Source: Caldilineaceae bacterium (GTDB lineage Bacteria > Chloroflexota > Anaerolineae > Caldilineales > Caldilineaceae). Taken from it: a stretch of DNA of 64,000 nt. The position numbers were made by a program, and so were the translations under genes. Below are positions 166-29,137 of this stretch, one piece after another. The number at the start of each line of letters is the position of its first letter. Position 1 is the stretch's first letter. Below the pieces are notes generated by a model that was not told the origin of the DNA, ran no database searches, and worked only from the letters and a program-made list of their open reading frames with translations. The stretch covers positions 1 through 64,000 of the forward strand of contig DAOUCA010000171.1 in NCBI GenBank assembly GCA_034432375.1, given 5' to 3'.

Positions 166-3100
166 CTATTCTGACCCTTGCACCAGCGGCAAGAATATCT
201 GATTAGAGAGTACCGTTGGTGTCTCCGCTACGTTCGCTTCCACTTGCTCAGGTTCACTATCCACAAGTTCTGACGCAGAAGAGTCGTCATCACTGTGGTC
301 CGTCTCAGCTGCCTGGGCAGCAACGACCGTATCGCCGGCAATCAATGGCAAGTACAGCTGATGGCCGAGCGATAGAGCGTCAACAACCGAGGCTTCTGTG
401 GCAACACTCTCTACCTGTGCAGCTTGGCCGCGCCCGTTCCCCTTGCTGACAATCACCTGCACATTGCCGTTGTTGATGGGCATCTCGCTGCCATTGTCAT
501 AGATGACCGTACCACCGGCATCCTGCCACCAGATGTATTGGCTTTCGTCCTCGGTCCAGATGCGCACACGTAAGGTGTCCGTATCGCCATCGGTAGCCCA
601 GAGCCAGAAATGGTAGGGATTGCCGTTGGCGTCCATCTGGCCGTTGATCGTGCCGATGCCCTTGGCCATGGCCGTGTCGACGGGGTAGACGATGAGCCAC
701 TCATAGTCCGTAGCGATAAAGTCCATGCCGGCTGCCGGCAGACCAAAGCGGAAGTTGCCCTTGGGCTGGGTGGCGTTCTTCTGGTAGTCGACCGGCAGGT
801 TGAAGTCGGCCAGACCGCTGATGCTTTCGTCGAGCTTGTAGGCACTGGCGGGCGAATCGATCTTGCCACCGCCGGCCATCTTGCCCGCATCCGGGTCGTA
901 GACGACCACGTCGAAGGGCACAGTAAAGGCAACCAGCGAACTGCCATTCTCCGTGACATTGAGCGTTGCCGCATAGATGCCAGCGGCACTATAGACGTGG
1001 CTACCACTGATGGCACCGCTCGCCGCATCGACCGTGGCCAGCGAAGTTGTGCCGTCACCCCAGAGCCACGACGCCATATGGATTGCGGCGTCGTAGGCCG
1101 GATAGACGGTGCTCAGCTCAATCGACGTGTTCACTAACTGCAATGCCGAGTAGACGCTGACCGATGTGCCGTTTGCCTCTACCGCAGCAGCGACAACTTC
1201 GTCGCTGGCGGTGTCAATCTGCATTGCGGCAACCTGCACCGTAGCAGCTTGCGCACCGCTCGCGCCCGTTTCAAGGACGGAGATCTCTGAGACCACAGTG
1301 GTGCAATGGCCGTAAAGGTCGCAAGCGCTCATGGACGGACTCGGTTCTACAACAACCATCTCCTGCGAAGTAGTCAACTGAACGATCATTTGAGAATCAG
1401 TGATGCGCTCGGTGTACCAGGCCGCGTCTTGATAAGACACTGTGCGGTAGCTGTTGTCCACTGGGCACGCCCAACCCGTTTCGACCAGATGCTCATCGTC
1501 GGCTGTACAGCGCACCTGGGCATTGCGATAGTCGGCATTGGGCACGTACGCGAAGGTCACACGCGGGGCGACGGTATCGATGACGCCGGCCCATGCTTCC
1601 TGGACGATGCGGCTGTTGCCGAGGCCGTCGGTAACCTGAAGGTCTACTTTGTACGGTCCTTCCAGTTCATCGTCCAGCGTATAACTCCACGTCGTGAAGT
1701 TACTGCTAGTATCGGCAACGGTGGCATCGACCCAGGGAGTGACTTCGCCGTCGAGGTGGCTAAAGCGAATCTGGGTCTGAGCAATCCCGACAGCAAGCGG
1801 GTTGGCGATGTTGTAGATTTCGCTGTCGCTCAAGGCTCGGCCGTAGAGGGCAACTTCATCAATTGCACCGTGGAAGAAGTTGGCGGCTGACTTCGCTCTG
1901 CCGATCAGCACAGCACCGAGACTACTCTCCATGACTTTGTCCCTACTGATCGACAGCTTGCCATTCAGATAAAGCTTGACCGTTGTGCCATCGTAGGTGA
2001 CGGCGGCATGCTGCCACGTATTATCCGTCACATAGGCATTTTGCATGCCGGTTCCGCCGAGGAAGGTGCCCAATTGGCCATTGGGCAACACATAGAGCCA
2101 GGAGCGTCCGGGGCCGCTGCCATCCATCTGTTGCAGGATATTGCGCTGCGTTGGATGTGAAGTCACATTGAACCAGGCCATGGCGGTGAAAGGTCCGTTT
2201 GCCGGATCCAGCACATACGGCATGGTCAGGTAATCATTCGTGCCATCAAACTGCAGCGCGCTACCGAATGGCCCGCCAACACCGGCGACTGGACAGCTAT
2301 CTTGCTCTGAGCTTGTCGAAGGGTTACAGGTTGCGGTCAGCCGCTCCGCTGACGTGCTGCTGTTGCCGGCATAGATCGAGCCGTTAACGAACGCATTTGC
2401 ACCGGCGGCCTCCTCGAAGTGCAGATGGACCAGGCGACTGCTGTTCACGGGGTAGGGTACGTCGCTGACAATACCCGATAGAACCGTCCCCGTCTGTGTG
2501 ATCAGTTGGCTTGTCGTGGGAAGATCGGCGTAGGGTGCGATGCCGTCAAGTTGTACGCCTGGGAAGAGTTCATCGGTCTCATTGCCCGCGGCGTCTCTCC
2601 CCCAGACCCGTACCGTATACGCGCCATAGGGTGCACTGTCGAAGGGCTGAGTCGCTAGCCACTTTGTGCCCCCAACGGTGGCCGTAATCACAGCGCTGAC
2701 GGGCTGCTGCAATGCATCGCTCAGTTGCATGGAGACCGAATTGGCCACGATGCCACTTTGGCTGTCGCTGACCGTACCACGAATAACCAACTGTTCACTT
2801 GCTTGCGTGATTCCGCTAGTCAATGTCGAGTTCACCGTTACGAGCGGTGCTGTTCCATCGATCTTGAGCGTAAAGATTTGTGAATTAGCTACGTTACCAA
2901 CCCGATCGGTGGCACCCACTGCCAGATTCAGCGTCCCACCAGACAAGGTCGCTGGCAGGGTGATACACCAACAACCATCGAATTCAGGGTTGTAGACCAC
3001 TGAGGAGCCGGCATCATTGAAGAGGACTTGGACTTTGGCAATGCCGGAGGCTACACCGTTGACAGTTGGGTCATCAATGGCAAAGGCAATGACCTGACCA

Positions 3101-6100
3101 GGCGCAACATAGTCCAGACTGTAGTCGAGGGCGACGGTAGGCGCAACGGCATCGACCAGAATCTGGTGTTGCTCTTTGACGTCGAACCAACTGCTCTGGT
3201 AATCATAGAGGGCAGCGACTTCGGATTGACGTAAAGCACCCTTTTGAATGGTAATCTCATCCAGATTACCGCTAAAGACCTTCCCGATTTGGACCGGGGC
3301 GGTATTGTGACAGGGGGCGGTGACATTCAGCACAGAATTATCCAGCGCACCGTTGATGTAGAGCCGTGCCTGGGTGCCATCGTAGGTCATGACAACGTGG
3401 TTCCACTGGTTTTGAAGCAACGCGCCTTCGCTATCCACATATTTTAAGGCCGTGCAACCGCTGACGATACTATAGGTGACCTTTAGGGAGTTGGATTGTA
3501 GGAGGATAGCGTAATTTCGATTGATCGTCGTCGACGATTTGTCTAAAAGCACCTGACCGCCCTTACGCACTTGGGTCGGCTTGACCCAAAGCGCAATGGT
3601 GAACTCGTCGAGGTCCAGGTCATCACTATCCGCCACGTCGATGAGATCGTCGCCATCGAAGACCGCGGCCTCACGCATCTGTCCCTTGTCACCAGCGCCA
3701 GGACAGCTATCGCCAGAACAGGTGCCAGCCGCGGCATTGGGCGAATCGTTGACGTAGGTGGTCGTGCCCAGATCCTCGTCCAGGTGAAGGTTGAGCAGTG
3801 GTGCCTCGTCCATCATGGCTTGGATGCCGGCTTTGTCCATGGCAGATCGGACCACGCGCAGGTCGTCGATAAGCCCATCAAAGACTTCGCTGCGCGCTTG
3901 CGAGCCGGCAACCGTGGTTGCACCGATGAGGTAGGCGTCATCGGGATTGGGCTGAGCCGGTGCCGTGCCTGCCACTGTCTGGATAAACTGGCCGTTGACG
4001 TAGAAGTGGGCGTCGTTGTTGGCGTCGAAGCTGACAGCGACGTGACTCCATTGACCGGCGGGAATGTTGGAAGCGGTGCTGCGATAGTCTTTCACCCCAA
4101 AGGTGGTGAAGAGGAGATTGCCGTCTCTTACGCCAAAGCCGACGCCGTTGGCGCTGTTGGTGCGGCCGGCGGCTAGGATGCGGCGCACGCCATTTACGAC
4201 ATCGGGTTTGACCCACGCCATGATGGTGAAGTTGCGTTCGCTCAACCCCAAGTCCGCTTCACTCGCTGACAAAGAGAGGTAATCGGCGACGCCATCGTTG
4301 CCGTCGTCGTCGGCCACACCGCCGTCGAAGCGCAGCGCCTGGTTGGCGCGGCCAGGGATGCCGCTGTCGGGACAACTGGTGCCTGCGCAGGTTGCTTCAA
4401 GGTAGTTGCCCGCGCTGTCGATGAAGCGGGTCTGACCCGGCGCCTCATCCATCGTCATTTTCAGCGTCACCGCCCGATCTTGATAGAAGGCAAGGGCTGA
4501 CTCGGGCGACAGGGCATAGGCGTGCATGTTGAAGTCTTTGAGATCGCCGTCAAAGAAGTCGTTGGAGAGCGACCAGTAGAGTGTCCCTTTGTCAGGTACC
4601 ACAACGCCACTACTGAATCCCGTTTCGAAGATACCCAGCGGGTTTCTGTTGCCCAATGACGTTCTATAGAGATACTCATTTTCGTTGTCATTGCCATAAT
4701 CACAGTCATCCTTATTGCCGTCATCTTCATGCAGGCGGAACCAATGGCGTTTTAAATCGTCACCCTCTGTATCGTCAGCGATTCGCTTGAGCGTGAACGG
4801 GTAAATATGGGCGGTATTGCTGTCTGAAATCTGGACATTGAAGTCGTGCCAGATGCGCCCGGTGCCATCACCATCCTCGTCAAAGTTGAGACAGAGCTCA
4901 GCTTTATCCCCGGGATCACGCAAATCGGTGAAATCCGCGTCATTAAAGTAGAAATAGCCATAGGTATTGGGGCGTCCGATCTGGATTGTGTCCCATGTGC
5001 TAAAGTTCGTGGCTGGGTTTACATCGGAACAGCTATTGACTGAACCGCGGTCAACTTCGATGCCGTTGATATAGAGGACAAGGGTGCCACTTGTCGCGGT
5101 ATCTCTAGCGTAGGTGACAGTGACGAACTGGGGTGCGCCATCATAATTGATAAGATTGGGCGTCGACGTAAAGATGCAAGGAGCTGCACTGCTGCCCCAG
5201 ACCATGCGTAGCCGACCAGCATCACTGACAAACATTGAGGGGTAGATCTTGTCGCCACTTGCCTGGCCAAAGAGACCCTGCCAATCCTGTTCAGTATCGT
5301 GGGTGGCAAGGGTATATTGGTCAGTTGTCTGAGTAAAGTTGTCGACTACCGGTCGTGTATCAAACTCGTATGTCCGCGTATGTGGGGCCATCAAGATCGA
5401 GAAGCTGAACGCATCACCAGTCAGGGCGAGCGCGCTATCGGATACTTGCACATTGGTCTTTTGGTCAAAGGTCGCGCCCGTGTTTGGATCAACCGTGGGG
5501 CAGCGGGAACCGACACAAGCAACATTGTCGGTATTACTTGCGTTTGGATCGTCGGTTAGCGCCACATTGACCCTGGCCGCATTGGCCAGATCGCGGATGG
5601 TTGCAGCGTCTAGCGTTTCCGCATAAATTTTTAGATCATCGATACCACCGTAACCACCCATAGTGAGAGTGCTGCCGGTTGGTGCTGTATTCAGCGTACC
5701 AGAAGCCAGCAACAGACCACTTATATAGAGTTGCGCTGTTTTGTCGACCGCATTATACGTGAAAGCAACATGTGTCCAAGAGGAATCCCACCACGAATAT
5801 ACGCCAGAGGCAATGTTACCTGGATAGATAGGATCGACCGCGTACATGACTATCTGCGCGCCTTCCAAAATCCTGATAATTGGGCCATCGGCTACAATCT
5901 TGAAATCACCCAATTCAAAGACCAAAAGATCTGGATCTGGATAGGTACTTGGATCGACCAGTGCTGCAATCGTCAAGCTGCCAAGTGTGTTCAGTGCTGC
6001 ATCTGTACCCTGGATATAGGTGTCGTTAAACGTCAGCGATCTGCCATTCGCGGTTGGGCAGCCATTATTGACACAGACAAAATCGTCGTTGTGCGGGATG

Positions 6101-9100
6101 GTGATGTCACGGAAGCTGGTTGCCCCGGCCGCTTCGCTCATGCTCAGGTGAACCAACGCATCCGATTCTGGCACAATCACGGCCCCGGCGCGCAGCGTCA
6201 TGCTGGTGACCAGGCTGCTGTTGACGTCGACGACAAGTGAACCGTTCATCTCGACTGATTCCTGCGGTCCCAGCACGCCGCCGTCGGCAAAGACGCGCGT
6301 CTCCTGTACGACATCGACGGGGAACTCGGATTGGAGCAGACCACGAGCATAACGATTGCGCAGGTCGTTCTGAATGGTGGCGCTGTAGTCGATGGTGTCG
6401 CCCGGCTTGACGTAGGGCGCCGCAGCGCTGCTGGGCGCAATCGAGGTATCGAGCGCAAGCACCTGGAGGGATGAGGGAACCTGTGGATTGTAGCCGTAGA
6501 CAAACTCCTTGCGGTCGGAGATGCCGTCGTCATCACTGTCCGGATCGGTTGGGTCGGCGTTCACCCAGAAATGCAGGGGTTTGTCGTTGGCATCATAGTC
6601 GTAAACGACCTCCCAACCGCCAACATAACTGCCGTTGACAACGGGAATGCTCTCGACATTCGCCGGCACACAAGCGGGTGCCACGGCATTGGAGGAATCA
6701 CCATTCTCATAGGGGCTTTTGCGGTTGGGATGGAGCCGTTCGGCGCTGTCAAAGAGACCGTCGTTGTCGCTGTCGGCGCTGTAGGGATTGGTGTTGTAGA
6801 GCAGTTCCCAGTAATCGGTCAGCCCATCACAGTCACCGTCGGCCGCCTCGGCATCAAAGCCAATGCTCTTTTCAAAGTAGTCGCTCAAGCCGTCGCCATC
6901 ACTGTCGGGCTGGCTGTCGTTGGGGTCGATGCCACCGACGGCCTTGCTCAGTAAGCCGTCGTTGTCGGCGTCGGCAATCACGGGGAAGCGTTGATCCCAG
7001 GCCAGCCGATAGCTGTTGTCACTCGATTCGGCAAGCGTGTGGAAACCGGACTTTGCACCCACGGCATTGAGTGTAGCTGGGAAGACATCGAAAACGAGAG
7101 AGTTACCCAAATCGTTGTGAAAACTATCTTCATATTCCTGCAACCAGCAGACCGGAATCAGCGGCGGTGTCAAAGCCGGATTAGGGAGCAGCCAGCAGCT
7201 TTGTGCCTCCATGGCAAAGCTCTCGCTGAGATAAGCCTGCTGGGACTGATTGATCCCTGGCCCTTTAAGCGTGATAGAAGTGGATGGATTGAAAGTTTGA
7301 TAGAAGCGTTCGCCATCCGGCACACCGTCGAGACCATAGCTGCTCTTGCGCCCAGGCGTTGCATTCCAGGTGGTGCCACCGCGGTCCAACGATACATCCT
7401 TGGGCTCCGGCTGGAAGCGATAGTCAAAGGTTGTATTATCCAGGTAGCTGTCGTCAAGTTGCCAGTTGTAGATGTAGCCCATCCAGTTTGGCGTGTTGGC
7501 ATAGAGCGCCGATGTAATGACGCCACTCAGTAGCAGTTCGTTGCCGGTAACGATGCCGGCCTTGCCAGATGTAGGCGTAAAGAGCGGGGTTGCCAGCGAG
7601 ATGTCAAGACGATCTTTGTTTTCTAGATCCACTAACGGTGTAAAGTCATGAATCACATAAGTGAGTGCTACCGTAAAAGCTTGTGTCAACCCACCACAGA
7701 CCCAGGTATCGACCTCAGGGTTGATCTCTTCGCCGGAAGCCCTGGCAATGGAACAACCTAAGCCAATCAGCCCATCAATGATACCGAGCGCGCCCATGAG
7801 CACTTGCCCACCTGGAACCAGGGTAATCCCCGCCACGATACCACTGACAATAAGGCCGGCAACCTGATCCGCCAGGAGACTCTCAAAGGCTGGGGAGCCG
7901 GCTGTAAAGCTGCCAGTACCCAGTGCAACGCTAATGGTAACACCCGCCATCGCGGTGGAAGTAACCAGCCCGAATACTGCCGCGCCCTTCCAACTTCTCT
8001 TGATCTTTTGGACACCCTTGGTCGCTTTGGGCAGCGTTTTGCCAGGGCTTGCCGCAAGTTTCTCAGATACTTTAAGAAATTCGCGGTAGTTAAAGATATA
8101 CTTATACTGGAGCGCCGAGCTTACGGCCAACAGCGTACTCGTTCCGGCCAATGCAACCGTATAGCCGGCAACGCCTACTTCTTGAAGCTGTGGTCGTAAA
8201 AATCCGGTAAGACTCTTGGACATCGATTGACTCACATAGACCATCGCCACATTGTAATTAATGTCCGCTGTAGCAATGGGCAGGCTATATTGGGTGAGTT
8301 CGAGCAGCGCCTGTCCTGTCGCGGAATCTGTACTGCCTGTTGCCACCGACCCAATGGCATCGAGGGTGGCTGAGGACGATGCCCCCAGCAGTGCCCAAAT
8401 GGCATTGGCGACCGCGTCCGTCTCGTTGCTAACTGTGGTGATGGTCACATTATCCAGGCTGCTGCGCGTGTAGAAGGTCTGCGTCTCAGCCAACAGCGTG
8501 CTTACAATCGTGAGGGCCGGCTCGGTCGTCAGTTGATAGCGGGTGTTATCCAGATCGGTGACACCGAGCGCTTCGCCATCGATGACCAATTGCGCAGCTG
8601 TGCCGGAGAGCAGCGCCTGATAGTACCCTGTGAGCAAAAGGAGGGCACCGGCGCGCGCAGTCTCGACATCGATAAGCGGATCCGTGTTCAGGCTCTGCAA
8701 GCGGGCCTCGGTGTAGAATGCCTCCCAGTTGGGGGCCACCGCCTGCACATAGCTGGTTGAATCGATATCGACCCAACCCTCGCTCTGACTGTAGAGATAA
8801 GGCTTGAGTACCATGCTGCCAACAGTATCAAGCGCAACACCTGCCGCTGGATCAGCGAAGGTGATCTGCAATTGATTGTTGGTCATGGTCGCATCGCTGA
8901 AGGAGGCGCTGCGCTGGCTAGATTCACTCACCACCAGCAGATTGCCAACGGTGCTGTCGGCCGGTGACGCGCCATAAACGTCGGTGAGAATCTGATCCAT
9001 CTGTTCGCCATTGAGCGTAGCAACCACGTCCACCTCATTGGCTAAGTTCACGGCGCGCTCATCAACCACCAACGCGCCGGCGGGAATCCCCCAGTCGGTC

Positions 9101-11586
9101 AAGCTGTTTTTGATATCCGCAACCGTGAAGCGATTGCCGTCAGCCTTGCGCTCGCCTTCCATAAAGACATTGTTCAGGACGTCGGCGAGATGCAGCAGAT
9201 AGTTGTCATAGTTGGCATTGCCACCAGTCACGTTGTGTGCCTGACCGATGACTACGCTACTGGCACCATGTGCCTCATCCACGCTCAGACCGGTCAACAT
9301 AAAGTCGTCGTAGTAGCTTTCAACGACGATGGTGTTGCTGGTCCAAACATCGTCGACCAGTTCGTCGGTCTGCATGGTGACTGCCCAAAGCAACTTGATG
9401 GTGTGCGCTGCCCCCCAAGTAGCTGCGTTCTGCTGATAGGGAATACGCGCGCTCAGCGCCACTGGGGCATAACCGATGGGATCTTCAACCTGGGTGACGG
9501 GCACATAGAGCCAAATGGAACTGTCATGCTTGTCCAACGAAGCCGTGATGCCATACTCATCCAATGTCGCCGTGTCAAGCCACTCTTCTAGTGGGGTCGT
9601 GGCCGCGATGCTCTGCACATCAACACCGGTGGCGACAGGAAGGCTGCGCGCCGGGTTGGCCGCGTCGAAAGGAATGTTGATCTCCAACATGGGTGAGAGC
9701 AACATGTCGCCGTTACCCTTGTCAAATGTATCGTTGGTCATGCGTTTGATCTGCCCGGCATCATCGGTACCCGGCCAGTTGAGCACATTGTTGACATACC
9801 AAAGGTTGCGGGCGTCGGTGGGGCGAATCTGGAGGTCGACAACTGTATCCTGACCGGCAACCACATTGTCCAACGTCAAGCCAAACTGCCCGTCGGCAAC
9901 CGTTTCGACATTCTGCGGGGAGAGATCGGCGCTGTCCGGCACGCCGTCGCCGTCGTTGTCAAAGTCATAGACATCGGGTGCGCCGTCGCCGTCGGTGTCG
10001 CGGCAGTTGCCCGGCGTTACCGCGGGATCGATCACGCCATCGGTCTGCATGTCGTGCCGTTCGGGGCATTCAAGCAGGTCGATCATGCCATCGCCATTGC
10101 TGTCCGGGTTGCGCGGGTCCAGATACCAGATCTGGCCATTCACGGTAAAGGGCAATACTTCAGTGCGGTCGCTAATGCCGTCGTCATCGCTGTCGGCATC
10201 GTCGATCCAGGTGCCCAATTCATAGAGTTCGACGCTATCCAGCAGACCATCGTTGTCACAGTCGGTGCTCTCGGTGGGCGTCGGGCAGTCGGTTGTTGTC
10301 TGTGCGCTCTGTTGGCTTGCGGCGGCGCTGGTTGTAACGGTTGACAATGTTGCATTGGTGGGATGGTTGGTCAGCGCAACATTGTCGGTCGTGCGCTCTA
10401 GTTGGCTTTCATGGGGGTTGAATTCCTGCGCAGAGAGGTCCGCCAGTTCATTCGTCTCATTCGCTGGCGTCACCGATGCCTGGTCGGCGTGACGATCGTA
10501 AAAGGCGCTGGCCTGTTGCGTCTGCAGCAGCGGTGCCACGACCATCGCCAAAATCACGGCCACCACCAACGGCACGCGCACAAACTGGGCGCGCCGATGG
10601 GTGATGGTCAACAGCACAAAGGCCAACAGCAGGAAGAGCAAGCCCAACGTATAGCCCAATTGTTGCAGCGCGGCGCGGGAGAGCCCCAAGCTTTGGGTTA
10701 GAGCGGTGAATGCCTGGGTGGGCTGCTGCCAGATTGTCGCAACGGAGATGCCTGGCTGGGTCGCCCACCCGCTGAAATCGGTGGTGATCGCGGTTTCTAC
10801 CCACTCCTTGGCATAGCTGCGGGGCGGAAAGCGCAGATGAACGATTTGACGAACGGGGAATCCGTCACTGTTCACCCAGAGTTCGCCCTCGCCCGTCATC
10901 TCCACAAACTGCTGTGCTAACCCAAGTGTAATACCGGTGGGCAGATCGCCTTTGCGCCGCAACTCTTCTTCCAGGTTACGTCGCATAAATTCAGCATAGC
11001 GCGGCCCATCAATTTGAAAGGCGTAGCGGATCATCGCGGCCGAAAGCTGATCCGGCAGCAACGCGGAGGGGAAGAGCGTTTCTTCACTTCCTGTCCCAGC
11101 GTCGGGCGCGATCACGCGCACATTCTCGATGGCCGACAGGTAGCCCAATGGATCACCGCTCGGCGCAAAGAGATCGGTGACCTCATCAACGGTCTGCCAT
11201 TCGGCATCAGGCATCAGGCGTCCCTCTGCCACACCGTCGGCAATTCTGATCTCCATTGGCGCTTGGTTCGGCAGTTGCAATTGGAGGTGCATGGTTTCCT
11301 GTCGCGTATCCAACTGCCCTGATACCGCCATCTGCTGTGTGCGGGGCGCACGACCGACGGTATCGAGCCGTGCGACGGGGTTGATTGTCTGCGCGATATT
11401 GCTCTTATAAGTGTAGCGCCCTGCCGTGCCGGCCGCTTTCCAGATCTGCTGCAACGTCTGCGCCGGCGTTTGGGGGAGCGCCGCGGCGATGGTCGTGCGC
11501 ATGGTATAGGTGCCGGCGAGAGCCACGATACCCAGCACCATGAGCGCTAAATACAAGATGGTTGTCTGTTTGGTTCTCTGTTTCAT
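166..11586 (-). CDS. Giant membrane-anchored surface/adhesin protein (~3806 aa) with thrombospondin type-3 repeats, at least five LamG/ConA-like lectin domains and Ig-like domains; C-terminal tail ...QIFLPLVQGSE
   Basis: A continuous 11.5-kb ORF. I trimmed the start to the ATG at 11586 (MKQRTKQTTILYLALMVLGIVALAG, an N-terminal TM anchor), which is preceded by the RBS GAAAGAGGAA. TSP3 motifs include DxDxDGxxDxxE repeats (e.g. DCDNDGLLDSVE, DTDGDGAPDVYDFDNDGDGVPD). LamG_3 signatures are FTIMAWVKP, FTIALWVKP, FTAMAWFNV and ...VTYDGT..LYINGAL. Confidence 0.85.
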   Translation of the reverse strand: MKQRTKQTTILYLALMVLGIVALAGTYTMRTTIAAALPQTPAQTLQQIWKAAGTAGRYTYKSNIAQTINPVARLDTVGRAPRTQQMAVSGQLDTRQETMHLQLQLPNQAPMEIRIADGVAEGRLMPDAEWQTVDEVTDLFAPSGDPLGYLSAIENVRVIAPDAGTGSEETLFPSALLPDQLSAAMIRYAFQIDGPRYAEFMRRNLEEELRRKGDLPTGITLGLAQQFVEMTGEGELWVNSDGFPVRQIVHLRFPPRSYAKEWVETAITTDFSGWATQPGISVATIWQQPTQAFTALTQSLGLSRAALQQLGYTLGLLFLLLAFVLLTITHRRAQFVRVPLVVAVILAMVVAPLLQTQQASAFYDRHADQASVTPANETNELADLSAQEFNPHESQLERTTDNVALTNHPTNATLSTVTTSAAASQQSAQTTTDCPTPTESTDCDNDGLLDSVELYELGTWIDDADSDDDGISDRTEVLPFTVNGQIWYLDPRNPDSNGDGMIDLLECPERHDMQTDGVIDPAVTPGNCRDTDGDGAPDVYDFDNDGDGVPDSADLSPQNVETVADGQFGLTLDNVVAGQDTVVDLQIRPTDARNLWYVNNVLNWPGTDDAGQIKRMTNDTFDKGNGDMLLSPMLEINIPFDAANPARSLPVATGVDVQSIAATTPLEEWLDTATLDEYGITASLDKHDSSIWLYVPVTQVEDPIGYAPVALSARIPYQQNAATWGAAHTIKLLWAVTMQTDELVDDVWTSNTIVVESYYDDFMLTGLSVDEAHGASSVVIGQAHNVTGGNANYDNYLLHLADVLNNVFMEGERKADGNRFTVADIKNSLTDWGIPAGALVVDERAVNLANEVDVVATLNGEQMDQILTDVYGASPADSTVGNLLVVSESSQRSASFSDATMTNNQLQITFADPAAGVALDTVGSMVLKPYLYSQSEGWVDIDSTSYVQAVAPNWEAFYTEARLQSLNTDPLIDVETARAGALLLLTGYYQALLSGTAAQLVIDGEALGVTDLDNTRYQLTTEPALTIVSTLLAETQTFYTRSSLDNVTITTVSNETDAVANAIWALLGASSSATLDAIGSVATGSTDSATGQALLELTQYSLPIATADINYNVAMVYVSQSMSKSLTGFLRPQLQEVGVAGYTVALAGTSTLLAVSSALQYKYIFNYREFLKVSEKLAASPGKTLPKATKGVQKIKRSWKGAAVFGLVTSTAMAGVTISVALGTGSFTAGSPAFESLLADQVAGLIVSGIVAGITLVPGGQVLMGALGIIDGLIGLGCSIARASGEEINPEVDTWVCGGLTQAFTVALTYVIHDFTPLVDLENKDRLDISLATPLFTPTSGKAGIVTGNELLLSGVITSALYANTPNWMGYIYNWQLDDSYLDNTTFDYRFQPEPKDVSLDRGGTTWNATPGRKSSYGLDGVPDGERFYQTFNPSTSITLKGPGINQSQQAYLSESFAMEAQSCWLLPNPALTPPLIPVCWLQEYEDSFHNDLGNSLVFDVFPATLNAVGAKSGFHTLAESSDNSYRLAWDQRFPVIADADNDGLLSKAVGGIDPNDSQPDSDGDGLSDYFEKSIGFDAEAADGDCDGLTDYWELLYNTNPYSADSDNDGLFDSAERLHPNRKSPYENGDSSNAVAPACVPANVESIPVVNGSYVGGWEVVYDYDANDKPLHFWVNADPTDPDSDDDGISDRKEFVYGYNPQVPSSLQVLALDTSIAPSSAAAPYVKPGDTIDYSATIQNDLRNRYARGLLQSEFPVDVVQETRVFADGGVLGPQESVEMNGSLVVDVNSSLVTSMTLRAGAVIVPESDALVHLSMSEAAGATSFRDITIPHNDDFVCVNNGCPTANGRSLTFNDTYIQGTDAALNTLGSLTIAALVDPSTYPDPDLLVFELGDFKIVADGPIIRILEGAQIVMYAVDPIYPGNIASGVYSWWDSSWTHVAFTYNAVDKTAQLYISGLLLASGTLNTAPTGSTLTMGGYGGIDDLKIYAETLDAATIRDLANAARVNVALTDDPNASNTDNVACVGSRCPTVDPNTGATFDQKTNVQVSDSALALTGDAFSFSILMAPHTRTYEFDTRPVVDNFTQTTDQYTLATHDTEQDWQGLFGQASGDKIYPSMFVSDAGRLRMVWGSSAAPCIFTSTPNLINYDGAPQFVTVTYARDTATSGTLVLYINGIEVDRGSVNSCSDVNPATNFSTWDTIQIGRPNTYGYFYFNDADFTDLRDPGDKAELCLNFDEDGDGTGRIWHDFNVQISDSNTAHIYPFTLKRIADDTEGDDLKRHWFRLHEDDGNKDDCDYGNDNENEYLYRTSLGNRNPLGIFETGFSSGVVVPDKGTLYWSLSNDFFDGDLKDFNMHAYALSPESALAFYQDRAVTLKMTMDEAPGQTRFIDSAGNYLEATCAGTSCPDSGIPGRANQALRFDGGVADDDGNDGVADYLSLSASEADLGLSERNFTIMAWVKPDVVNGVRRILAAGRTNSANGVGFGVRDGNLLFTTFGVKDYRSTASNIPAGQWSHVAVSFDANNDAHFYVNGQFIQTVAGTAPAQPNPDDAYLIGATTVAGSQARSEVFDGLIDDLRVVRSAMDKAGIQAMMDEAPLLNLHLDEDLGTTTYVNDSPNAAAGTCSGDSCPGAGDKGQMREAAVFDGDDLIDVADSDDLDLDEFTIALWVKPTQVRKGGQVLLDKSSTTINRNYAILLQSNSLKVTYSIVSGCTALKYVDSEGALLQNQWNHVVMTYDGTQARLYINGALDNSVLNVTAPCHNTAPVQIGKVFSGNLDEITIQKGALRQSEVAALYDYQSSWFDVKEQHQILVDAVAPTVALDYSLDYVAPGQVIAFAIDDPTVNGVASGIAKVQVLFNDAGSSVVYNPEFDGCWCITLPATLSGGTLNLAVGATDRVGNVANSQIFTLKIDGTAPLVTVNSTLTSGITQASEQLVIRGTVSDSQSGIVANSVSMQLSDALQQPVSAVITATVGGTKWLATQPFDSAPYGAYTVRVWGRDAAGNETDELFPGVQLDGIAPYADLPTTSQLITQTGTVLSGIVSDVPYPVNSSRLVHLHFEEAAGANAFVNGSIYAGNSSTSAERLTATCNPSTSSEQDSCPVAGVGGPFGSALQFDGTNDYLTMPYVLDPANGPFTAMAWFNVTSHPTQRNILQQMDGSGPGRSWLYVLPNGQLGTFLGGTGMQNAYVTDNTWQHAAVTYDGTTVKLYLNGKLSISRDKVMESSLGAVLIGRAKSAANFFHGAIDEVALYGRALSDSEIYNIANPLAVGIAQTQIRFSHLDGEVTPWVDATVADTSSNFTTWSYTLDDELEGPYKVDLQVTDGLGNSRIVQEAWAGVIDTVAPRVTFAYVPNADYRNAQVRCTADDEHLVETGWACPVDNSYRTVSYQDAAWYTERITDSQMIVQLTTSQEMVVVEPSPSMSACDLYGHCTTVVSEISVLETGASGAQAATVQVAAMQIDTASDEVVAAAVEANGTSVSVYSALQLVNTSIELSTVYPAYDAAIHMASWLWGDGTTSLATVDAASGAISGSHVYSAAGIYAATLNVTENGSSLVAFTVPFDVVVYDPDAGKMAGGGKIDSPASAYKLDESISGLADFNLPVDYQKNATQPKGNFRFGLPAAGMDFIATDYEWLIVYPVDTAMAKGIGTINGQMDANGNPYHFWLWATDGDTDTLRVRIWTEDESQYIWWQDAGGTVIYDNGSEMPINNGNVQVIVSKGNGRGQAAQVESVATEASVVDALSLGHQLYLPLIAGDTVVAAQAAETDHSDDDSSASELVDSEPEQVEANVAETPTVLSNQIFLPLVQGSE

Positions 11587-11647
11587 TTGATTCCTCTTTC
11601 GGTTTCTGTGTAAAAATGCAACAAAATACAAGGGATCTCCTTCTGTA

Positions 11648-16430: not shown

Positions 16431-16464
16431 CATGCGCGTACGGAGCGGCGGAAGTGAGTACGTC

Positions 16465-16503: not shown

Positions 16504-16532
16504 ACTCTTCTGTTGGTTCAAACTGCCGACTA

Positions 16533-19101: not shown

Positions 19102-19803
19102 CTATGGCTGTTCGGTCGCCATGTCGAGCAGAGGATAATCAGCATTGCTCGGTTGGGCATAGGCTTGCAGGCCGGCATCATTAAAGGCCAGCGCCAGATC
19201 GCCCAGGAGCAGCCAGGAAAGACCGACCGCTACCCCAATCCAGTCGCCGAGAAGCAGTTTCTTGCCAACGAATTCAAGGCGTAGCGGCGCTTTGATCAGC
19301 GTACCGGTGATAAAGGGGCGCTCATTGATGAAGCGCCCCAAGTCGGGCGAGCAGCCGACCACGAAATCAACCAATCGGCAATACCCATGTAGGCTCCAAC
19401 GCGCCACACGCCAATGGATCGAGATGGTCATAGGCAGCGGCAACATGTTCCACTGCTGTTCGGCAACCCAGCCATTGAGCACGCCCAGCCCGCCGCGCGC
19501 CGTTTCCAGCGATGCCAATACGACCGATAATCCGGTCCATAAATAGCCGGCTGCCGAGAGGAATGCGCCGCCGACCGCCAATGCCAGCCCTCCATAGAAA
19601 AGCAGGTGGGGCCGCACCTTGGGGTCAAAGCGCCAGATCAGCGCCGAACCAAGCAGCAGGGAGAGCGCCGCCAGCGTTTCCGCATTGAGGCCGTAGCCCG
19701 GTTCGTTGGCAAGCCAAAGCTGCTGGGCGACCAATACCAGATTGGCGACCTCGTAACCGAAAAACTGAATCTTGTTATGATGTTTGGCAAAGTGCTGAAT
19801 CAT
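19102..19803 (-). CDS. Polytopic membrane protein (234 aa, ~5 TM segments) of unknown function, co-directional with and immediately upstream of the 837-aa secreted protein
   Basis: I trimmed the start to the ATG at 19803 (MIQHFAKHHNKIQFFGY...), preceded by the RBS GGAAGGAGC. Hydrophobic segments include LAALSLLLGSALIW, LLFYGGLALAVGGAFLSAAGYLW and LLLGDWIGVAVGLSWLLLGDLALAF. Confidence 0.7.
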   Translation of the reverse strand: MIQHFAKHHNKIQFFGYEVANLVLVAQQLWLANEPGYGLNAETLAALSLLLGSALIWRFDPKVRPHLLFYGGLALAVGGAFLSAAGYLWTGLSVVLASLETARGGLGVLNGWVAEQQWNMLPLPMTISIHWRVARWSLHGYCRLVDFVVGCSPDLGRFINERPFITGTLIKAPLRLEFVGKKLLLGDWIGVAVGLSWLLLGDLALAFNDAGLQAYAQPSNADYPLLDMATEQP

Positions 19804-20062
19804 TGTGAATGCTCCTTCCGGGTTCATCTTGTGATCGCTCGATGTCTTTATGATAGCGACCAATCGCATCCGGATCGTCGCGGGTAGGGGTGGCTATCGT
19901 ATCGAATTCCGGTTGAAAACGTATCGAGATGGGGTAAATCTGTGCGTTGTATTGATAGCGAAAGGCAATACGCTTTGCGGCGCATTGGAAGCACGATATA
20001 ATCAAGGGTAACGGCATTTCAGTCTACGTTTGATGCGCTGTCCGTTTGGGTATATATCACAT

Positions 20063-23000
20063 ATGAATAGATTCACACTCGCATTTCTCGGCCACTTTCA
20101 GGTCACTGTTGATGGCGTATCGGTCACCGATTTCCATTCGGATAAGGCGCGCGCCCTGCTCGCCTACCTGGCATTGGAACCACACGAACATGATCGCACG
20201 CTGTTGGCCACATTGCTCTGGCCGGAGATCGGTGACCAATATGCGCGCACGAACCTGCGCAACACGCTTTATCGTCTGCGGCAAACGCTGACGAACGCTC
20301 TACCGGAGGCCGGTGATCGCTTGCTGACCGTTACGCGTCAGACGGTACACTTTAACCCCACCGAGAGCGTAGTGGATGTTCTGCGCTTCCAGGAGTTGCT
20401 GAGTCGGCAATTGACGGCAACTGCTCCTGAACTTACCCAATGGGAAGAAATCATTGCGCTCTATCAGGGTGAATTGCTCATGGGCTTCAACGTTGCCGAT
20501 GCCGCGCCCTTTGAAGAGTGGCTGCTGCTGCGCCGCGAACTCCTGCACCAACAAGCATTGTTGCTCTTTCACAAGGTGGCAACGGCCCATGAAACCGCCG
20601 GTCGCTACGAGCAGGCATACACCGTCGTCGGTCGTCTGCTCCTGCTCGATCCCTACCGTGAGGAGACCTACCAGCAGGCGATGCGTCTGCTGGCGCGGAT
20701 GGGGCAACCGCACCTGGCGCTACAACAAGTAGAGCAGTTACGCAAAGTCCTGCATGAGGCGATGGGGGTGGCACCGGCGGAGGAGACCCTGGCTCTCGCG
20801 CGGCAGATTGCAAACGGCGAGTTTGACAACGTTGCAGCGTTGCAAGTAAACATGGCGCGTTCGCAATCGCCGCCGCTTGTCACTCCCTCAGTTCCTCCCC
20901 AGGTCACCCCGTCGCCGGCGCTTGACCTGGACGATGTGCCCGATCTCGGCCCCTTCTTTGGCAGAACTAATGAGTACCAGCAGCTTACCCAATGGCTGCT
21001 GCATGACCGCTGCAAAGTGGTGGCCATTCTGGGCATTGGCGGCTTGGGTAAAACCACATTGGCTGCGCAAGCGGTCCGCCGGATGGTCATGCATGAGAAG
21101 GGTGCGTCGTTTGACGCCGTTTTTTGGCGCTCGCTGGTGAATGCACCAGCGGTCACCGAGCTGCTCTCTCCGCTACTCCAATCCCTCTCCGCGCAACAAC
21201 TGACACAGATGCCGGAGAGCGTCGATGAGCAGCTACGCCTGCTCTTCCGCTATCTGCGCGATCGGCGCGTGTTGCTGATCCTCGACAACGTCGAGAGCAT
21301 TTTGGCACCGGGCGACGCCGGCGCTTACCGCCCCGGCTTCGAGCACTATGGTCAGCTCATCCTTCAAATGGCAACGTTGGAGCACCAGAGCCACCTCTTG
21401 TTGACCAGCCGCGAGCGACCACGCGAATATGAGCGGTTGGAGCGTGATCGGTATTCGGTCCAAACGTTGCAACTTGGCGGGTTGGATGACCAGACGGGGC
21501 GTCAACTGCTACTGCAGCGGGGGCTCCTTGGGGAGAGTGGGCAAGAGAGCCGGCTTATCCAGCGCTATTCGGGCAATCCGCTGGCGCTCAAATTAGTCGC
21601 TGATACCGTCGCTGATCTCTTTGAAGGCGATATTGATGAGTTTCTACAAGAAGATACGGTCGTCTTTGACGACATCCGCACCATCCTCGACCAGCAGTTT
21701 GCGCGTCTCTCAGCGCTGGAGCAGGATCTCCTTTTCTGGCTGGCGGTGGAGCGCGTGCCAACGGCGCTTGCCCAGTTGCGCCAAAACCTTCTGCCAGGAT
21801 CTGCCCAGCGCTTGGTGGTAGAGGCGTTGCGTGGGCTGCAACGCCGCAGCCTGATTGAACATTCCGCGGCCGGATTTGGGCTACAGAATGTGATTGTGGA
21901 ATATCTGAGCGAGCGCTTGATTGAGATCATCAGCAACGAACTCGAAAGGGGTGAGCTTGTGCTGTGCCATCGGGTTGCGCTGCTCAAAGCCCACGCCAAA
22001 ACGTATGTGCGTCAGAGTCAGGCCCGTATGCTGCTAGTGCCCTTGGGCAACCGTCTACTGAACAGCTTGGGTGGCGGCTTCAACGCCCATATCCAGCAGC
22101 GCTTGGCCGATCTACGCCGAGCAGAGTCAGGGACACCGAGCTATGCCGCCGGCACCATCCTCAATCTGTTGTTACAGCTAGGCATTGATGTCACCGGCTT
22201 TGATTTTTCCCGCCTCTCGCTCCGGCAACTCTTCTTACAGGGTCTGCGCTTGCCCACCGTTGACCTAACCGCAGCCGATCTCACCGGCGCCCGTTTTTCC
22301 GACATCTTTGACAACGTTTGCACGGTTTCCTATAGCCCGAATGGTGAATTCATTGCGATTGGCACACTCAGCGGCGAAATCCGCGTCTGGGCAACCACCG
22401 ATCAGACGCTGGTTGCCCTTTGGCAAGGTCATGAGGATGCCATTTGGTCCGTGGCCTTTAGCCCCGACAGCGAAATGCTGGCCAGCGGCAGTGGCGACCA
22501 AAGCGTGCGCCTTTGGGCCGTGCGCACCGGCCAACTGCGCCACACCCTGCGCGACCATACCAAAGGCGTGGGCGCGGTGGCCTTTAGCCCCGATGGGAAG
22601 GTGGTCGCCAGTGGCAGTACCGATCGCACCATCTGCTTGTGGGATGTGCAGCAGGGCAGCTTGTGGCACCGCTTGGACCGAACCGGCTGGGTGACCACGC
22701 TGGCATTCAGCCCGGAAAGCTGGAACGGTCGCTATCTGCTGGCCAGTGCCGGCGAAGATCGAGTTGTGCAGTTGTGGGCGCTCGCTACCGCCGCCGCGAG
22801 CAATGGCGTCCCTGATACAACGCCAGGGACAAGCACAGCGCAACTCGCCGACAAAGCCGATCTCATTCGCACGTTAGAGGGGCATGCCGGCTGGATCCGG
22901 TCGGTCGCCTTTAGCTCGGATGGCACCATGCTGGCCAGTGGCAGCTACGATCAAACGGTGCGCGTGTGGGAGGTGGCGACAGGGGAACAGCGCCAGCTTT

Positions 23001-24556
23001 TAGCCGGCCATACAAATGCTGTCTTAACTGTGGCCTTTGCCCCGGATGGCCAGTTGGTCGCCGGCGCCGGTCGCGATCAGACTGTCCGGCTGTGGCAGGT
23101 ACAGACCGGCCAACTCTTTCGGACATTCCTTGGACACACGGACTGGGTGCGCGGGGTGGCATTTCATCCGGACGGTTCAACGCTGACCAGTGGCGCCTTT
23201 GACCAGAAGCTCTGTTTTTGGTCCATCACTACAGGACAACTCGAACAGACGACGCAGGGCTATAGCAATCCGATCATGTCTATCGACTACAGCCCGGATG
23301 GCAATACCCTGGTCAACAGCGGCGCAGAGCATGTACACCTGTGGCATGGCGCAACCGGCCGGCTCCAACAAACACTCCGTGGACATACCAACCGGATCCG
23401 CTGTGTCGTCTTTGGGCCACCGCGCGCCGATGGCGGTCAGCTACTGGCCAGCGGCGGCTATGACAACACGATTCGCTTGTGGGCGTTGCCGACAGATGTA
23501 CCTGGTGCGCCGATTGGCAACTCGGCGACCGCTGCAGCGCCATGCCGCGTCTTGACTGGTCACACCGATGCCGTCCACTCCCTTGCGTTTAGTCCCGACG
23601 GTCAACTCTTAGCCAGCGGCAGTGACGACGGCACCGTCTGGCTCTGGGAGCTGTCGGCCAGCCTTGGCGTCGGTAGCGCCGGTACCGTACTCCATCGTGG
23701 ACGACAGGAGCGTGCCGCCCCGGTTTCGTCAGTGGCGTTTGCGCCCGGTGTACCAGGGCACGCATTGGTGTTGGCCAGCGCCAGCACCGATCAATCAATT
23801 TATCTGTGGGAGGTGACGCCGCCGCAGAGTAAGACTGAGACTACGTCTGCACCCGCAACCGGAGGCGGGACTACCATACACCATGCCTCCGCCGTTGCAC
23901 ACAAGCACACTGGGCGCTTGCTTGCGATTCTCCATGAACTGGTGGCCGGTAATCGCGTGATTGCCTTTCGGCCCTACCAAGAAGGTGTCATGCCCCTGCT
24001 TGCCAGCGGCGGGTACGATGGCGCGATCCGCTTGTGGGATCTCACGCCACTTTTCAGTGCAAAGCAAACGTCCGCAGGTACCCCCGATCAGCCTGGCCAC
24101 GCTGGCGCAGCGCCAAGTGAACTAACGGACCAGATTCAAGTGTGGCAAACGCTCCAGATCGGTAGCGGACGGGTCCGTTGTTTGGCCTTTAGCCCCGACG
24201 GACGGACGTTAGTCAGCGGCTCCACCGATCGCAACCTCTACGTGTGGGATGTTGCCGGCGGCGAGGTGCGTCAAACATTGGTTGGCCACAGGGATTGGGT
24301 CTTTTCGGTAGTCTTCCAGCCGGCTTCAGAGCCGGCCGGCCGGCTTCTCGCCAGCAGCAGTGCGGACGAAACGATCAAGATTTGGGATCTTCAGAGCGGC
24401 GTCTGTCTTAAAACGTTACGTCCGCCTGGCCCTTATGCCGGGATGAATATCACCGGCGTCACTGGGATTAGCGAGGCGCAGCGGGCTGCGCTCAAGGCGT
24501 TGGGCGCGGTGGAAGGAGCAGAAGAGACAGGGGCAGCGGAAGCTGGTTTGCACTGA
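20063..24556 (+). CDS. SARP/AfsR-family regulator - NB-ARC - WD40 STAND protein (paralogue of 12126-16430)
   Basis: I trimmed the start to the ATG at 20063 (MNRFTLAFLGHFQVTVDG). The P-loop is GIGGLGKTTLA, followed by many WD40 units. The C-terminal tail YAGMNITGVTGISEAQRAALKALGAVE is identical to the paralogue's. Confidence 0.85.
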   Translation: MNRFTLAFLGHFQVTVDGVSVTDFHSDKARALLAYLALEPHEHDRTLLATLLWPEIGDQYARTNLRNTLYRLRQTLTNALPEAGDRLLTVTRQTVHFNPTESVVDVLRFQELLSRQLTATAPELTQWEEIIALYQGELLMGFNVADAAPFEEWLLLRRELLHQQALLLFHKVATAHETAGRYEQAYTVVGRLLLLDPYREETYQQAMRLLARMGQPHLALQQVEQLRKVLHEAMGVAPAEETLALARQIANGEFDNVAALQVNMARSQSPPLVTPSVPPQVTPSPALDLDDVPDLGPFFGRTNEYQQLTQWLLHDRCKVVAILGIGGLGKTTLAAQAVRRMVMHEKGASFDAVFWRSLVNAPAVTELLSPLLQSLSAQQLTQMPESVDEQLRLLFRYLRDRRVLLILDNVESILAPGDAGAYRPGFEHYGQLILQMATLEHQSHLLLTSRERPREYERLERDRYSVQTLQLGGLDDQTGRQLLLQRGLLGESGQESRLIQRYSGNPLALKLVADTVADLFEGDIDEFLQEDTVVFDDIRTILDQQFARLSALEQDLLFWLAVERVPTALAQLRQNLLPGSAQRLVVEALRGLQRRSLIEHSAAGFGLQNVIVEYLSERLIEIISNELERGELVLCHRVALLKAHAKTYVRQSQARMLLVPLGNRLLNSLGGGFNAHIQQRLADLRRAESGTPSYAAGTILNLLLQLGIDVTGFDFSRLSLRQLFLQGLRLPTVDLTAADLTGARFSDIFDNVCTVSYSPNGEFIAIGTLSGEIRVWATTDQTLVALWQGHEDAIWSVAFSPDSEMLASGSGDQSVRLWAVRTGQLRHTLRDHTKGVGAVAFSPDGKVVASGSTDRTICLWDVQQGSLWHRLDRTGWVTTLAFSPESWNGRYLLASAGEDRVVQLWALATAAASNGVPDTTPGTSTAQLADKADLIRTLEGHAGWIRSVAFSSDGTMLASGSYDQTVRVWEVATGEQRQLLAGHTNAVLTVAFAPDGQLVAGAGRDQTVRLWQVQTGQLFRTFLGHTDWVRGVAFHPDGSTLTSGAFDQKLCFWSITTGQLEQTTQGYSNPIMSIDYSPDGNTLVNSGAEHVHLWHGATGRLQQTLRGHTNRIRCVVFGPPRADGGQLLASGGYDNTIRLWALPTDVPGAPIGNSATAAAPCRVLTGHTDAVHSLAFSPDGQLLASGSDDGTVWLWELSASLGVGSAGTVLHRGRQERAAPVSSVAFAPGVPGHALVLASASTDQSIYLWEVTPPQSKTETTSAPATGGGTTIHHASAVAHKHTGRLLAILHELVAGNRVIAFRPYQEGVMPLLASGGYDGAIRLWDLTPLFSAKQTSAGTPDQPGHAGAAPSELTDQIQVWQTLQIGSGRVRCLAFSPDGRTLVSGSTDRNLYVWDVAGGEVRQTLVGHRDWVFSVVFQPASEPAGRLLASSSADETIKIWDLQSGVCLKTLRPPGPYAGMNITGVTGISEAQRAALKALGAVEGAEETGAAEAGLH

Positions 24557-27014: not shown

Positions 27015-27089
27015 CCGCTGCTGGTGCCAACGCTCCGGCGTAGGCACCTCTCTCTGGCGCTCCAGCGGATTAACAAAATACCGAAGTAC

Positions 27090-27535: not shown

Positions 27536-29137
27536 ATGCTAGGACAATTTGGTTCACGCATTAATCGCGTTACTTGTTACCGCTCAGCGCTGCTCTGGAC
27601 AGCGCTCGGCTTCATGCTGATTAACTCGGTAGTGGGCGCTGCATCGACCAGAGCAACGGCAGCGCCATTGCAGCCTTCTCGGCAATGGTACCTAGGCAAC
27701 GCGCTTGTGCAGCCAGCAGGCACAGCCGGTGCGCAAGCCTTTATCGAAGTCACCCCTTACGGCAACATCAACGCCAGCACCTACAATGACAATGCCTTTC
27801 GCATTACCAACAACGCCACCGCCGGCCAGAGCATCACCTCCCTCACCGTCGACCTGCGCACCACGATCTTGCCCGACATTGTCTTCGACCCCGATGGCAA
27901 AGCCGGTGATCTCGTCGCCAAAGCTTTTACCCCCAACGACGGCAGCGCGGCAACCGGCTACGTCAGCCACCAGTTAAGTGACTTCCACAATGGCATTGAC
28001 GACAGCGAAGGCTTTGACCGGCTACAGGTGAGCTTCAATGATTTTAACCCCGGCGAGAATTTTGGTTTTTCGATTGATATCGACCCGACGACGATCAAGG
28101 GGACAAATTCGCCTGGCCCTGGCGAATCTGGCAGCGTCTCCGGCTTGGAATTGATCGGTGCCACCATCACCGTCAGCTTTAGCGATGGCAACACCATCAG
28201 CGCGCACTTGTTCCATCGCGAAAACAGTGACAGCGGCTCCGAAGCAATAGTGCACGCCAGCGCGCCGGCAGCACCAACCATTGCGATCCCTGGCGTCACC
28301 ACACCGACGACCCTCTTTAGCGCCGCGCAAAACATCCAGGTCAACGCCCCTGCCGGCAGCACCGTGCGGCTCTTGCGCGTGGAAGGGGCGCTCTTTGAAC
28401 AGACGGGCGGTGGCTATGATGTGGATCCCTTTGAGGCCAACAGCGCGGTAACCTGGCAGGAGCAGAGCGCCACCGTTGATAACAGCGGGCTGGTCACCGT
28501 TCCCGTCACGTTGACCAAGAGCAATACCGACGGTGGACTCAATTATCTGGTGGCCGTGGTCGAAGCGAGTGACGACACAACCGGCGCGACCTCCAACCTG
28601 CTTGTGATCGACTATGCGCCCGAAGGCAACGCCGCACCGACGATTGCGCCAATTGCCAACCAAAGCAGCACCGAAGGGGCAACGGTCGCCGTAACGGTGA
28701 CGGCAACCGATCCAGACAACCGACCGCAGCCCCTTACCTTTAGCGCCACCAACCTACCTCCAGGGCTGACCATCAACGCCACGACCGGACAGATTGGTGG
28801 CACCATTGCTGCCGGCTGCGCTGCCGGCAGTCCCTATGCCGTCAGCATTAATGTCAGCGACGGTGCGGATAGCGCCGACACAACCTTTCAATGGAGCGTA
28901 AGCCCACCGCCAACCGGCACCCCACCCACCAGGACACCGACCCCCATTGTAACCCCTTCGGCAACAGCCACAGCAACCAGTCCGGCCTCATCCACGGCGA
29001 CGGCTACTGCGACCGCAACGGCCACCCCCACGGCGACACTAGAACGCACCGCCACCCCCACTCCCACGCCGACCGCCACCATTGATCCCCAAACGGGAGG
29101 GGAACAGAGGATTTTGCTGCCACTGATCCGTCGGTAG
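27536..29137 (+). CDS. Secreted protein with a signal peptide and a dystroglycan-type cadherin-like (Cadg/He_PIG) domain, a Pro/Thr/Ala-rich linker, and C-terminal tail ...GGEQRILLPLIRR
   Basis: I trimmed the start to the ATG at 27536 (MLGQFGSRINRVTCYRSALLWTALGFMLINSVVGAAS); the ORF track begins at a TTG at 27518. The RBS is AAAGGG. The Cadg-like block is APTIAPIANQSSTEGATVAVTVTATDPDN...LTFSATNLPPGLTINATTGQIGG. Confidence 0.75.
   Translation: MLGQFGSRINRVTCYRSALLWTALGFMLINSVVGAASTRATAAPLQPSRQWYLGNALVQPAGTAGAQAFIEVTPYGNINASTYNDNAFRITNNATAGQSITSLTVDLRTTILPDIVFDPDGKAGDLVAKAFTPNDGSAATGYVSHQLSDFHNGIDDSEGFDRLQVSFNDFNPGENFGFSIDIDPTTIKGTNSPGPGESGSVSGLELIGATITVSFSDGNTISAHLFHRENSDSGSEAIVHASAPAAPTIAIPGVTTPTTLFSAAQNIQVNAPAGSTVRLLRVEGALFEQTGGGYDVDPFEANSAVTWQEQSATVDNSGLVTVPVTLTKSNTDGGLNYLVAVVEASDDTTGATSNLLVIDYAPEGNAAPTIAPIANQSSTEGATVAVTVTATDPDNRPQPLTFSATNLPPGLTINATTGQIGGTIAAGCAAGSPYAVSINVSDGADSADTTFQWSVSPPPTGTPPTRTPTPIVTPSATATATSPASSTATATATATATPTATLERTATPTPTPTATIDPQTGGEQRILLPLIRR

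Follow-up and report, generated by a model that had tools for sequence, protein, structure and literature searches.

Is the short hydrophobic tail shared by three large exported proteins of one genomic locus a signal that places them in the cell envelope, and how would such a signal be read? The locus is a stretch of 64,000 nucleotides from a Caldilineaceae bacterium (NCBI GenBank assembly GCA_034432375.1, contig DAOUCA010000171.1, positions 1 to 64,000 of the forward strand), called the window below. The tails are IFLPLVQGSE in a giant surface protein, LFLPLVSNTD in an RTX/cadherin-like protein and ILLPLIRR in a He_PIG protein, all three of them signal-peptide proteins. We find that the shared tail is real, departs from chance and is under selection. 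It belongs best under a motif that is catalogued but uncharacterised, the YLP box of NCBIfam, and not as a new motif. We think it probable that this box, very short and placed at the C-terminus, serves for sorting or retention and is specific to a Caldilineae-type lineage of Chloroflexota, with docking as its favoured mode of action. The interest lies in the mechanism of the motif rather than in its existence. Caldilineaceae belong to the class Caldilineae of Chloroflexota, a phylum placed in Bacillati (NCBI taxonomy) and increasingly regarded in the literature as monoderm.

Three window proteins with a common tail

The giant surface protein (166-11688, minus strand) is encoded by an open reading frame (ORF) of 3840 residues with a likely start at 11586. 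It contains five Laminin_G_3 domains as well as Big_13, PKD and TSP3 domains, has an N-terminal signal/anchor segment at 11488-11562 and ends in SNQIFLPLVQGSE. Its terminal box IFLPLV occupies 181-198 and is followed by QGSE at 169-180 (whole feature 169-198).

The RTX/cadherin-like surface protein (16533-19043, minus strand; 836 residues) carries two Big_9/Cadherin domains and six HemolysinCabind domains, which are RTX repeats. A Sec signal peptide is encoded at 18924-19043 and an acidic linker at 16566-16676, after which the protein ends in RIQQLFLPLVSNTD, with the box LFLPLV at 16548-16565 and the trailing residues SNTD completing the feature (16536-16565).

The He_PIG protein (27536-29137, plus strand; 533 residues), named after its cadherin-like immunoglobulin domain, consists of a signal peptide (about 27536-27646), an N-terminal domain of ∼300 residues, the He_PIG domain and a Pro/Thr/Ala-rich tether (28916-29110) predicted to be disordered. 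It ends in GGEQRILLPLIRR, where the box ILLPLI (29111-29128) is trailed by RR (feature 29111-29134). In an AlphaFold2 (AF2) model built on an alignment of only nine sequences, the tether and tail (residues 461-533) are coil with a predicted local distance difference test (pLDDT) score of 24-33, as would suit a linear motif held on a flexible tether.

The three tails thus lie where the original prediction had placed them, and their anatomy agrees with its description. An acidic or Pro/Thr-rich low-complexity linker precedes the box in each protein. Only two to four polar residues separate the box from the stop codon, and no hydrophobic helix follows the box in any of the three, in contrast to LPXTG and PEP-CTERM signals.

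Occurrence of the tail against chance

In 553,605 residues of unrelated metagenome loci, used as a control, the strict pattern had 17 matches, none of them at an ORF end. The number of terminal matches expected in 46 genes is then 0.0099, and the probability of seeing three or more is 1.6e-7; an estimate based on composition gives 2.4e-12 for all three proteins. With a looser pattern, the controls had 13 terminal matches vs 12.2 expected and hence no enrichment at ORF ends.

The positional bias of the motif was assessed in 212 proteins that had been retrieved without regard to their tails. Strict-pattern matches fell within six residues of the C-terminus in 17 out of 22 cases, where 0.6% would be expected (binomial P = 3e-34). 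By both measures the motif exceeds random expectation at C-termini. An unbiased sample of relatives, made up of 80 metagenome loci that surround the gene for shikimate kinase-DHQ synthase, served as a negative control and yielded no new carriers.

Conservation of the tail in orthologues

Orthologues of the He_PIG protein keep the tail down to 57% identity (ILLPLIRR, LLLPLIQK, LYLPLIHKQ, IYLPVVQK, FLLPIMHS and FLLPIFN/K), and the Pro/Thr linkers ahead of the tails are divergent (P0002-P0009). Orthologues of the RTX protein end in RIQQ[LV]FLPLV with a few further residues or in LYLPMITSSGQ, and those of the giant protein in QLFLPLVASSD or TLFLPLISTQ; across the final 100 residues of three giant-protein orthologues, nothing but F-L-P-L is invariant as a run. 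The codons for L-P-L vary synonymously among orthologues (CTG/TTG for the first position; CCG/CCC/CCT/CCA for the second; CTG/CTA/TTA/CTC for the third), which argues that selection acts on the peptide and not on a DNA element. A DNA-level repeat or terminator as the source of the shared tail is ruled out, since codons differ between the genes as well as between orthologues.

From 18 tails we derived the consensus [LIVF]-[FLY]-L-P-[LIVM]-[VIMF], with a polar residue ahead of it and one to five mostly polar residues between it and the end. L-P is invariant in all 18, and each of the six positions admits a restricted set of residues. Carriers of other architecture include tandem-95 proteins (VYLPLVHP and VYLPLVKQ at the stop), P0150 (IYLPIIQNN) and P0183 (LFLPVVVR), and variants such as LYMPLIVR occur. 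The box is modular across unrelated domain architectures. In line with the original prediction, it behaves as a C-terminal tag that exported proteins share whatever their domain content; its conservation is at the peptide level.

Some carrier genes also keep each other's company. The giant LamG/TSP3 gene neighbours the RTX/cadherin gene, both YLP-tailed, in the window (166-19043), and the same pair of neighbours is found in the Caldilineaceae genome GCA_041391085.1 (locus L012, 1-13552) and in the Chloroflexota metagenome-assembled genome GCA_039028975.1 (locus L014, 1-13288). An orthologue of the He_PIG protein is encoded on a Caldilineaceae contig that shares the gene order of the window, with shikimate kinase-DHQ synthase copies that are 82% identical.

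Export and taxonomic range of the carriers

The carriers are large adhesin-like proteins. Every carrier with a complete-looking N-terminus, 17 by count, has a signal-peptide-like segment according to a hydropathy heuristic, and so do the three window proteins; these N-terminal signal peptides indicate that the carriers are exported through Sec. The exported solute-binding protein and the M23 peptidase encoded in the window are without the tail.

All carriers with a named source come from Chloroflexota, mostly from Caldilineaceae. Among source-named proteins not marked as partial, the tail was present in six of seven from Chloroflexota vs none of 11 from other phyla (Planctomycetota, Actinomycetota, Pseudomonadota and Archaea; hand-computed Fisher P = 3.8e-4). 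Homologues elsewhere have tails of their own: Rhodothermales homologues of the N-terminal domain of the He_PIG protein (L004 and L005) end in a C-terminal domain of the type IX secretion system (T9SS) type (GIYLYRV, further on GRMTFVK at the stop), and some other homologues of the RTX protein end in a transmembrane (TM) helix followed by RRRW. The same passengers thus carry phylum-specific sorting tails, and in the present lineage the YLP box fills that slot.

Other short shared endings were seen in homologues from other lineages, namely R.FYQL.FEP..., ARFYRL.LLP at the stop, a TM helix with GAWFARRRW.R at the stop, and acidic tails finishing in WLL or WLA. The proteins with these endings are P0018-P0033, P0191/P0196/P0205/P0207/P0209, P0118/P0189 and relatives, and P0105-P0130; two of the acidic WLL/WLA tails belong to source-named Pirellulaceae and Planctomycetales proteins.

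Relation to the YLP-box models of NCBIfam

The original prediction had regarded the tail as undescribed, a claim that does not survive comparison with curated models. When the tails were scanned against NCBIfam (E ≤ 10), only two models were returned, NF053834 (‘ultrashort_CTERM’) and NF050076 (‘sort_motif_YLP’), both described as ‘YLP-box putative sorting motif-containing protein’. Their cut-offs are 10 and 15 bits, respectively, and many matches this short are dropped by the filters of HMMER. The terminal tail of the giant protein scores 14.2 bits with NF053834, above the cut-off, and 11.9 bits with NF050076, below it; an internal box of the same protein, LYLPLI, scores 12.9 bits with NF050076 (cut-off 15). 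With the latter model the RTX tail reaches 12.1 bits (again under the cut-off of 15), while a near-identical orthologue tail (P0115) reaches the cut-off of NF053834 with 12.9 bits. No NCBIfam match was reported for the He_PIG tail ILLPLIRR itself; its orthologue P0005 passes NF053834 with 14.1 bits. The tails of relatives score up to 15.2 bits with NF050076 (cut-off 15) and 12.9-14.1 bits with NF053834.

Like the NCBIfam motif, which spans 10-11 positions around [YFL]-L-P-[LIV]-[IV] at the extreme C-terminus, the tails of the window and of relatives align to model positions 1-11; unlike it, the window tails have F or L instead of Y before L-P, and their scores lie at or below threshold. This comparison was made through hidden Markov model matches and through the names and descriptions of the models, which call the function putative and name no partner. 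Our literature search turned up no work that deals with a YLP box in bacteria, with NF053834 or NF050076, or with sorting signals of Chloroflexota.

Tandem and internal boxes

A six-frame scan of the window detected two further boxes in real genes. One is the internal LYLPLI of the giant protein (340-357, minus strand), 57 residues before the stop and separated from the terminal box by an acidic, poorly conserved spacer (199-339). Such double boxes also occur in the giant-protein orthologue of L012, in P0042 and in P0055, with spacers of 32-93 poorly conserved residues. The other is IFLPII (within TYEIFLPIIEN; 59783-59800, plus strand), situated at the junction of the PhoD and Fasciclin domains of the protein encoded at 57935-60250. 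A Caldilineaceae PhoD orthologue (L002, 14229-16487) has IHLPLI (within IHLPLIAQ) in the corresponding place, although the C-terminal extension behind it is a different one.

The distance from the box to the free C-terminus is thus variable: one to five residues trail it as a rule, and some copies lie 25-150 residues from the end. Taken together, the tandem boxes, the internal box ahead of a folded domain and this variable distance favour docking without obligatory cleavage. The varying distance also argues against recognition of the PDZ, PTS1 or KDEL type.

Possible mechanisms of the YLP box

We favour, as the probable explanation, a sorting or retention motif that acts by docking. A carrier would be exported via Sec; after export, some component of the envelope would recognise the box as a linear hydrophobic peptide; and the C-terminal end of the carrier would thereby become fixed in the multilayered Caldilineae envelope. 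The box would be presented for this at the end of a variable, apparently disordered tether, acidic or Pro/Thr-rich. Cryo-tomography of Litorilinea aerophila, a member of Caldilineae, has revealed a cytoplasmic membrane, peptidoglycan, an inner layer around each cell, an outer layer shared between cells and a protein lattice (PMC13319060), so that exported proteins have several possible destinations. The supplements of that paper contain nothing on the YLP box.

Several observations weigh against docking, or against a sorting function in general. No candidate for a receptor or enzyme recurs near carrier genes in the Pfam annotation of the neighbour loci, where only BTAD-type regulators stand beside several of them. 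The preference for docking without obligatory cleavage has the anatomy of the tails as its sole basis. The positional statistic includes orthologues that are not independent, about seven independent families being counted, and not one carrier was present in 66 kb of DNA sampled without bias from close relatives. The association with signal peptides is biased, given that the search for carriers started from secreted proteins and their homologues. Of the three window tails, two either miss the NCBIfam cut-offs or go unreported. Finally, we found no experiment or paper supporting a sorting function, and NCBIfam itself says ‘putative’.

A processing-type, sortase-like signal is a serious rival, although we consider it rather unlikely. 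An extracytoplasmic peptidase or transpeptidase would cut in or after the box, discard the downstream part and link the protein covalently to the wall or outer layer. The strong C-terminal bias is in line with such a role; the one to five variable polar residues behind the box resemble a dispensable leaving group, the invariant L-P recalls LPXTG, and downstream extensions of 25-150 residues are tolerated. There is, however, no TM helix that would keep the substrate membrane-bound, and genes for a sortase, exosortase, rhomboid or CPBP protein were seen neither among the scanned window ORFs nor in the Pfam annotation of neighbour loci. Moreover, obligatory cutting would leave two features without use: the second box, which is conserved, and the Fasciclin domain that is folded behind a box.

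It is less probable again, and in our judgement improbable, that the box has no dedicated partner and that its six hydrophobic residues serve as an interfacial anchor or as a strand for self-association. A short hydrophobic core between polar residues could behave in this way, tandem copies would add avidity, and no partner was found; still, the invariance of L-P in all 18 tails and the restricted residues at six positions argue for specific recognition over mere hydrophobicity in general.

The original prediction had put forward a particular partner, a helical membrane-type protein of 233 residues that starts with MIQHF and is encoded at 19102-19803 (minus strand), 55 nt upstream of the RTX gene and co-oriented with it. 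Apart from this position, a role as cognate processing or anchoring factor is recommended by the AF2 model of the protein, a confident (pLDDT 90.5) all-helical bundle with hydrophobic segments consistent with a membrane protein. The model has no meaningful match among solved structures, though, and a plain helical bundle of this kind bears no likeness to a protease or transpeptidase in fold or catalytic signature. The family (conserved motifs HNxIQFxGYExAN, ASLETARGG and W..GD.ALALND) has only 51 representatives among 1.84 billion proteins, whereas carriers occur in several Chloroflexota assemblies, and some of its members are fused to an N-terminal FHA domain, a cytoplasmic signalling domain. 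The co-occurrence that had been expected of such a factor was likewise not seen, with no homologue near the RTX orthologues (L012, L014 and L015) or anywhere in the 1.0 Mb of fetched loci, and we regard this partnership as very unlikely.

Least likely of all, the RTX tail, which the original prediction had likened to a type I secretion signal, can hardly be one that resembles the other two tails by coincidence: six HemolysinCabind repeats do lie shortly before the C-terminus, as in type I substrates, but Sec signal peptides of a typical cleavable kind are present in the protein and in its orthologues (the N-terminus MFNQ...LLGLLLALITALALTLPAHA ahead of QGG is conserved in orthologues, with LTLPAHA just before the cleavage point), neither the scanned window ORFs nor, by their Pfam annotation, the loci L012, L014 and L015 include an ABC, HlyD or TolC gene, the same box ends proteins without RTX repeats, and the phylum is the Bacillati member, increasingly regarded as monoderm, introduced above.

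Returning to docking, a stronger form of it is possible but doubtful in our view. The YLP box may represent a new mechanistic class, a linear docking motif without TM helix and without cleavage that can be terminal, tandem or internal; a receptor in the outer layers of the Caldilineae envelope would read it and pin the far end of giant proteins there, and at least one of these proteins may be embedded in the membrane.

Regarding the giant protein, internal hydrophobic clusters resembling TM hairpins were noticed at residues about 348-388 and 1240-1315. An equivalent cluster is present in the L012 orthologue (residues 494-586 of a partial ORF), so that at least one of them recurs. Should these clusters be membrane-spanning, preventing escape would not by itself call for the tail, which might instead pin the far end of the protein to an outer layer.

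Other genes of the window

Two paralogous regulators of ∼1500 residues with many WD40 repeats flank the RTX gene (12012-16430 and 20030-24556, both on the plus strand); towards the C-terminus they have a nearly identical stretch in common, GMNITGVTGISEAQRAALKALGAVE. In L014 the equivalent cluster encodes a BTAD/NB-ARC/WD40 regulator, and in L002 and L096 regulators of the BTAD type are found close to carriers.

Just downstream of the He_PIG gene, a protein with a Tox-PL-2 papain-fold toxin domain is encoded on the minus strand (29692-30024). It overlaps an ORF of 128 residues without a Pfam family (29309-29695), possibly the immunity protein of the Tox-PL-2 protein; contig L001 has the same pair.

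The remainder of the window consists of a large aromatic amino-acid biosynthesis cluster, together with the exported solute-binding protein and the M23 peptidase mentioned above. The cluster includes genes for prephenate dehydratase, prephenate dehydrogenase, EPSP synthase, shikimate dehydrogenase, TrpA/TrpB, chorismate synthase and a shikimate kinase-DHQ synthase fusion, and inside it are two tandem paralogues of DAHP synthase (36594-37664 and 37759-38775, plus strand).

Comparison with known sorting systems

Chloroflexota have an unusual, multilayered envelope, and no account of how surface proteins are placed in it is known to us. We compared the YLP box with signals characterised elsewhere. 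In common with the LPXTG signals of sortases, it is a tag at the C-terminus with an L-P core, borne by adhesin-like surface proteins that Sec exports, many per genome. The YLP tails differ in having no T-G, no hydrophobic helix and no basic tail, and in that boxes can be tandem or internal; no sortase gene is present among the scanned window ORFs.

The PEP-CTERM/exosortase, GlyGly-CTERM/rhombosortase and MYXO-CTERM/myxosortase systems are similar in that lineage-specific C-terminal tags follow low-complexity linkers on unrelated passengers. Their signals, however, are tripartite, consisting of a motif, a TM helix and a basic (Arg-Lys) cluster, and are cut by intramembrane enzymes, whereas the YLP box comes without a TM helix.

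The C-terminal domain of T9SS substrates (Por sorting domain) takes the equivalent position in the Rhodothermales homologues and may be seen as a functional analogue. It is a folded domain of tens of residues in organisms with an outer membrane, in contrast to the linear YLP box of ∼10 residues. As for the type I signal of RTX proteins, one of our three proteins does have RTX repeats near its C-terminus; unlike a type I substrate, it begins with a signal peptide, transporter genes are absent from the scanned ORFs around it, and the same tail is found on non-RTX proteins.

Motifs that receptors read at the extreme C-terminus include the PTS1 signal -SKL, KDEL, PDZ ligands and the YxF tails of outer-membrane proteins, all of which require a free carboxylate at a fixed distance. 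The YLP box may work similarly, as a very short terminal peptide that lacks a TM helix and is read by a receptor, but it is trailed by one to five variable residues and has internal copies.

Among characterised systems, be it sortase, exosortase, rhombosortase, T9SS or type I secretion, none is matched by a tag of ten residues without a membrane helix. Database curators have taken note of the motif but it has not been studied, and whatever reads it would stand for a new sorting route. The boxes in tandem and internal position, the conserved cluster of giant and RTX genes, and the exchange of the box for T9SS-type tails in other phyla provide handles for that work.

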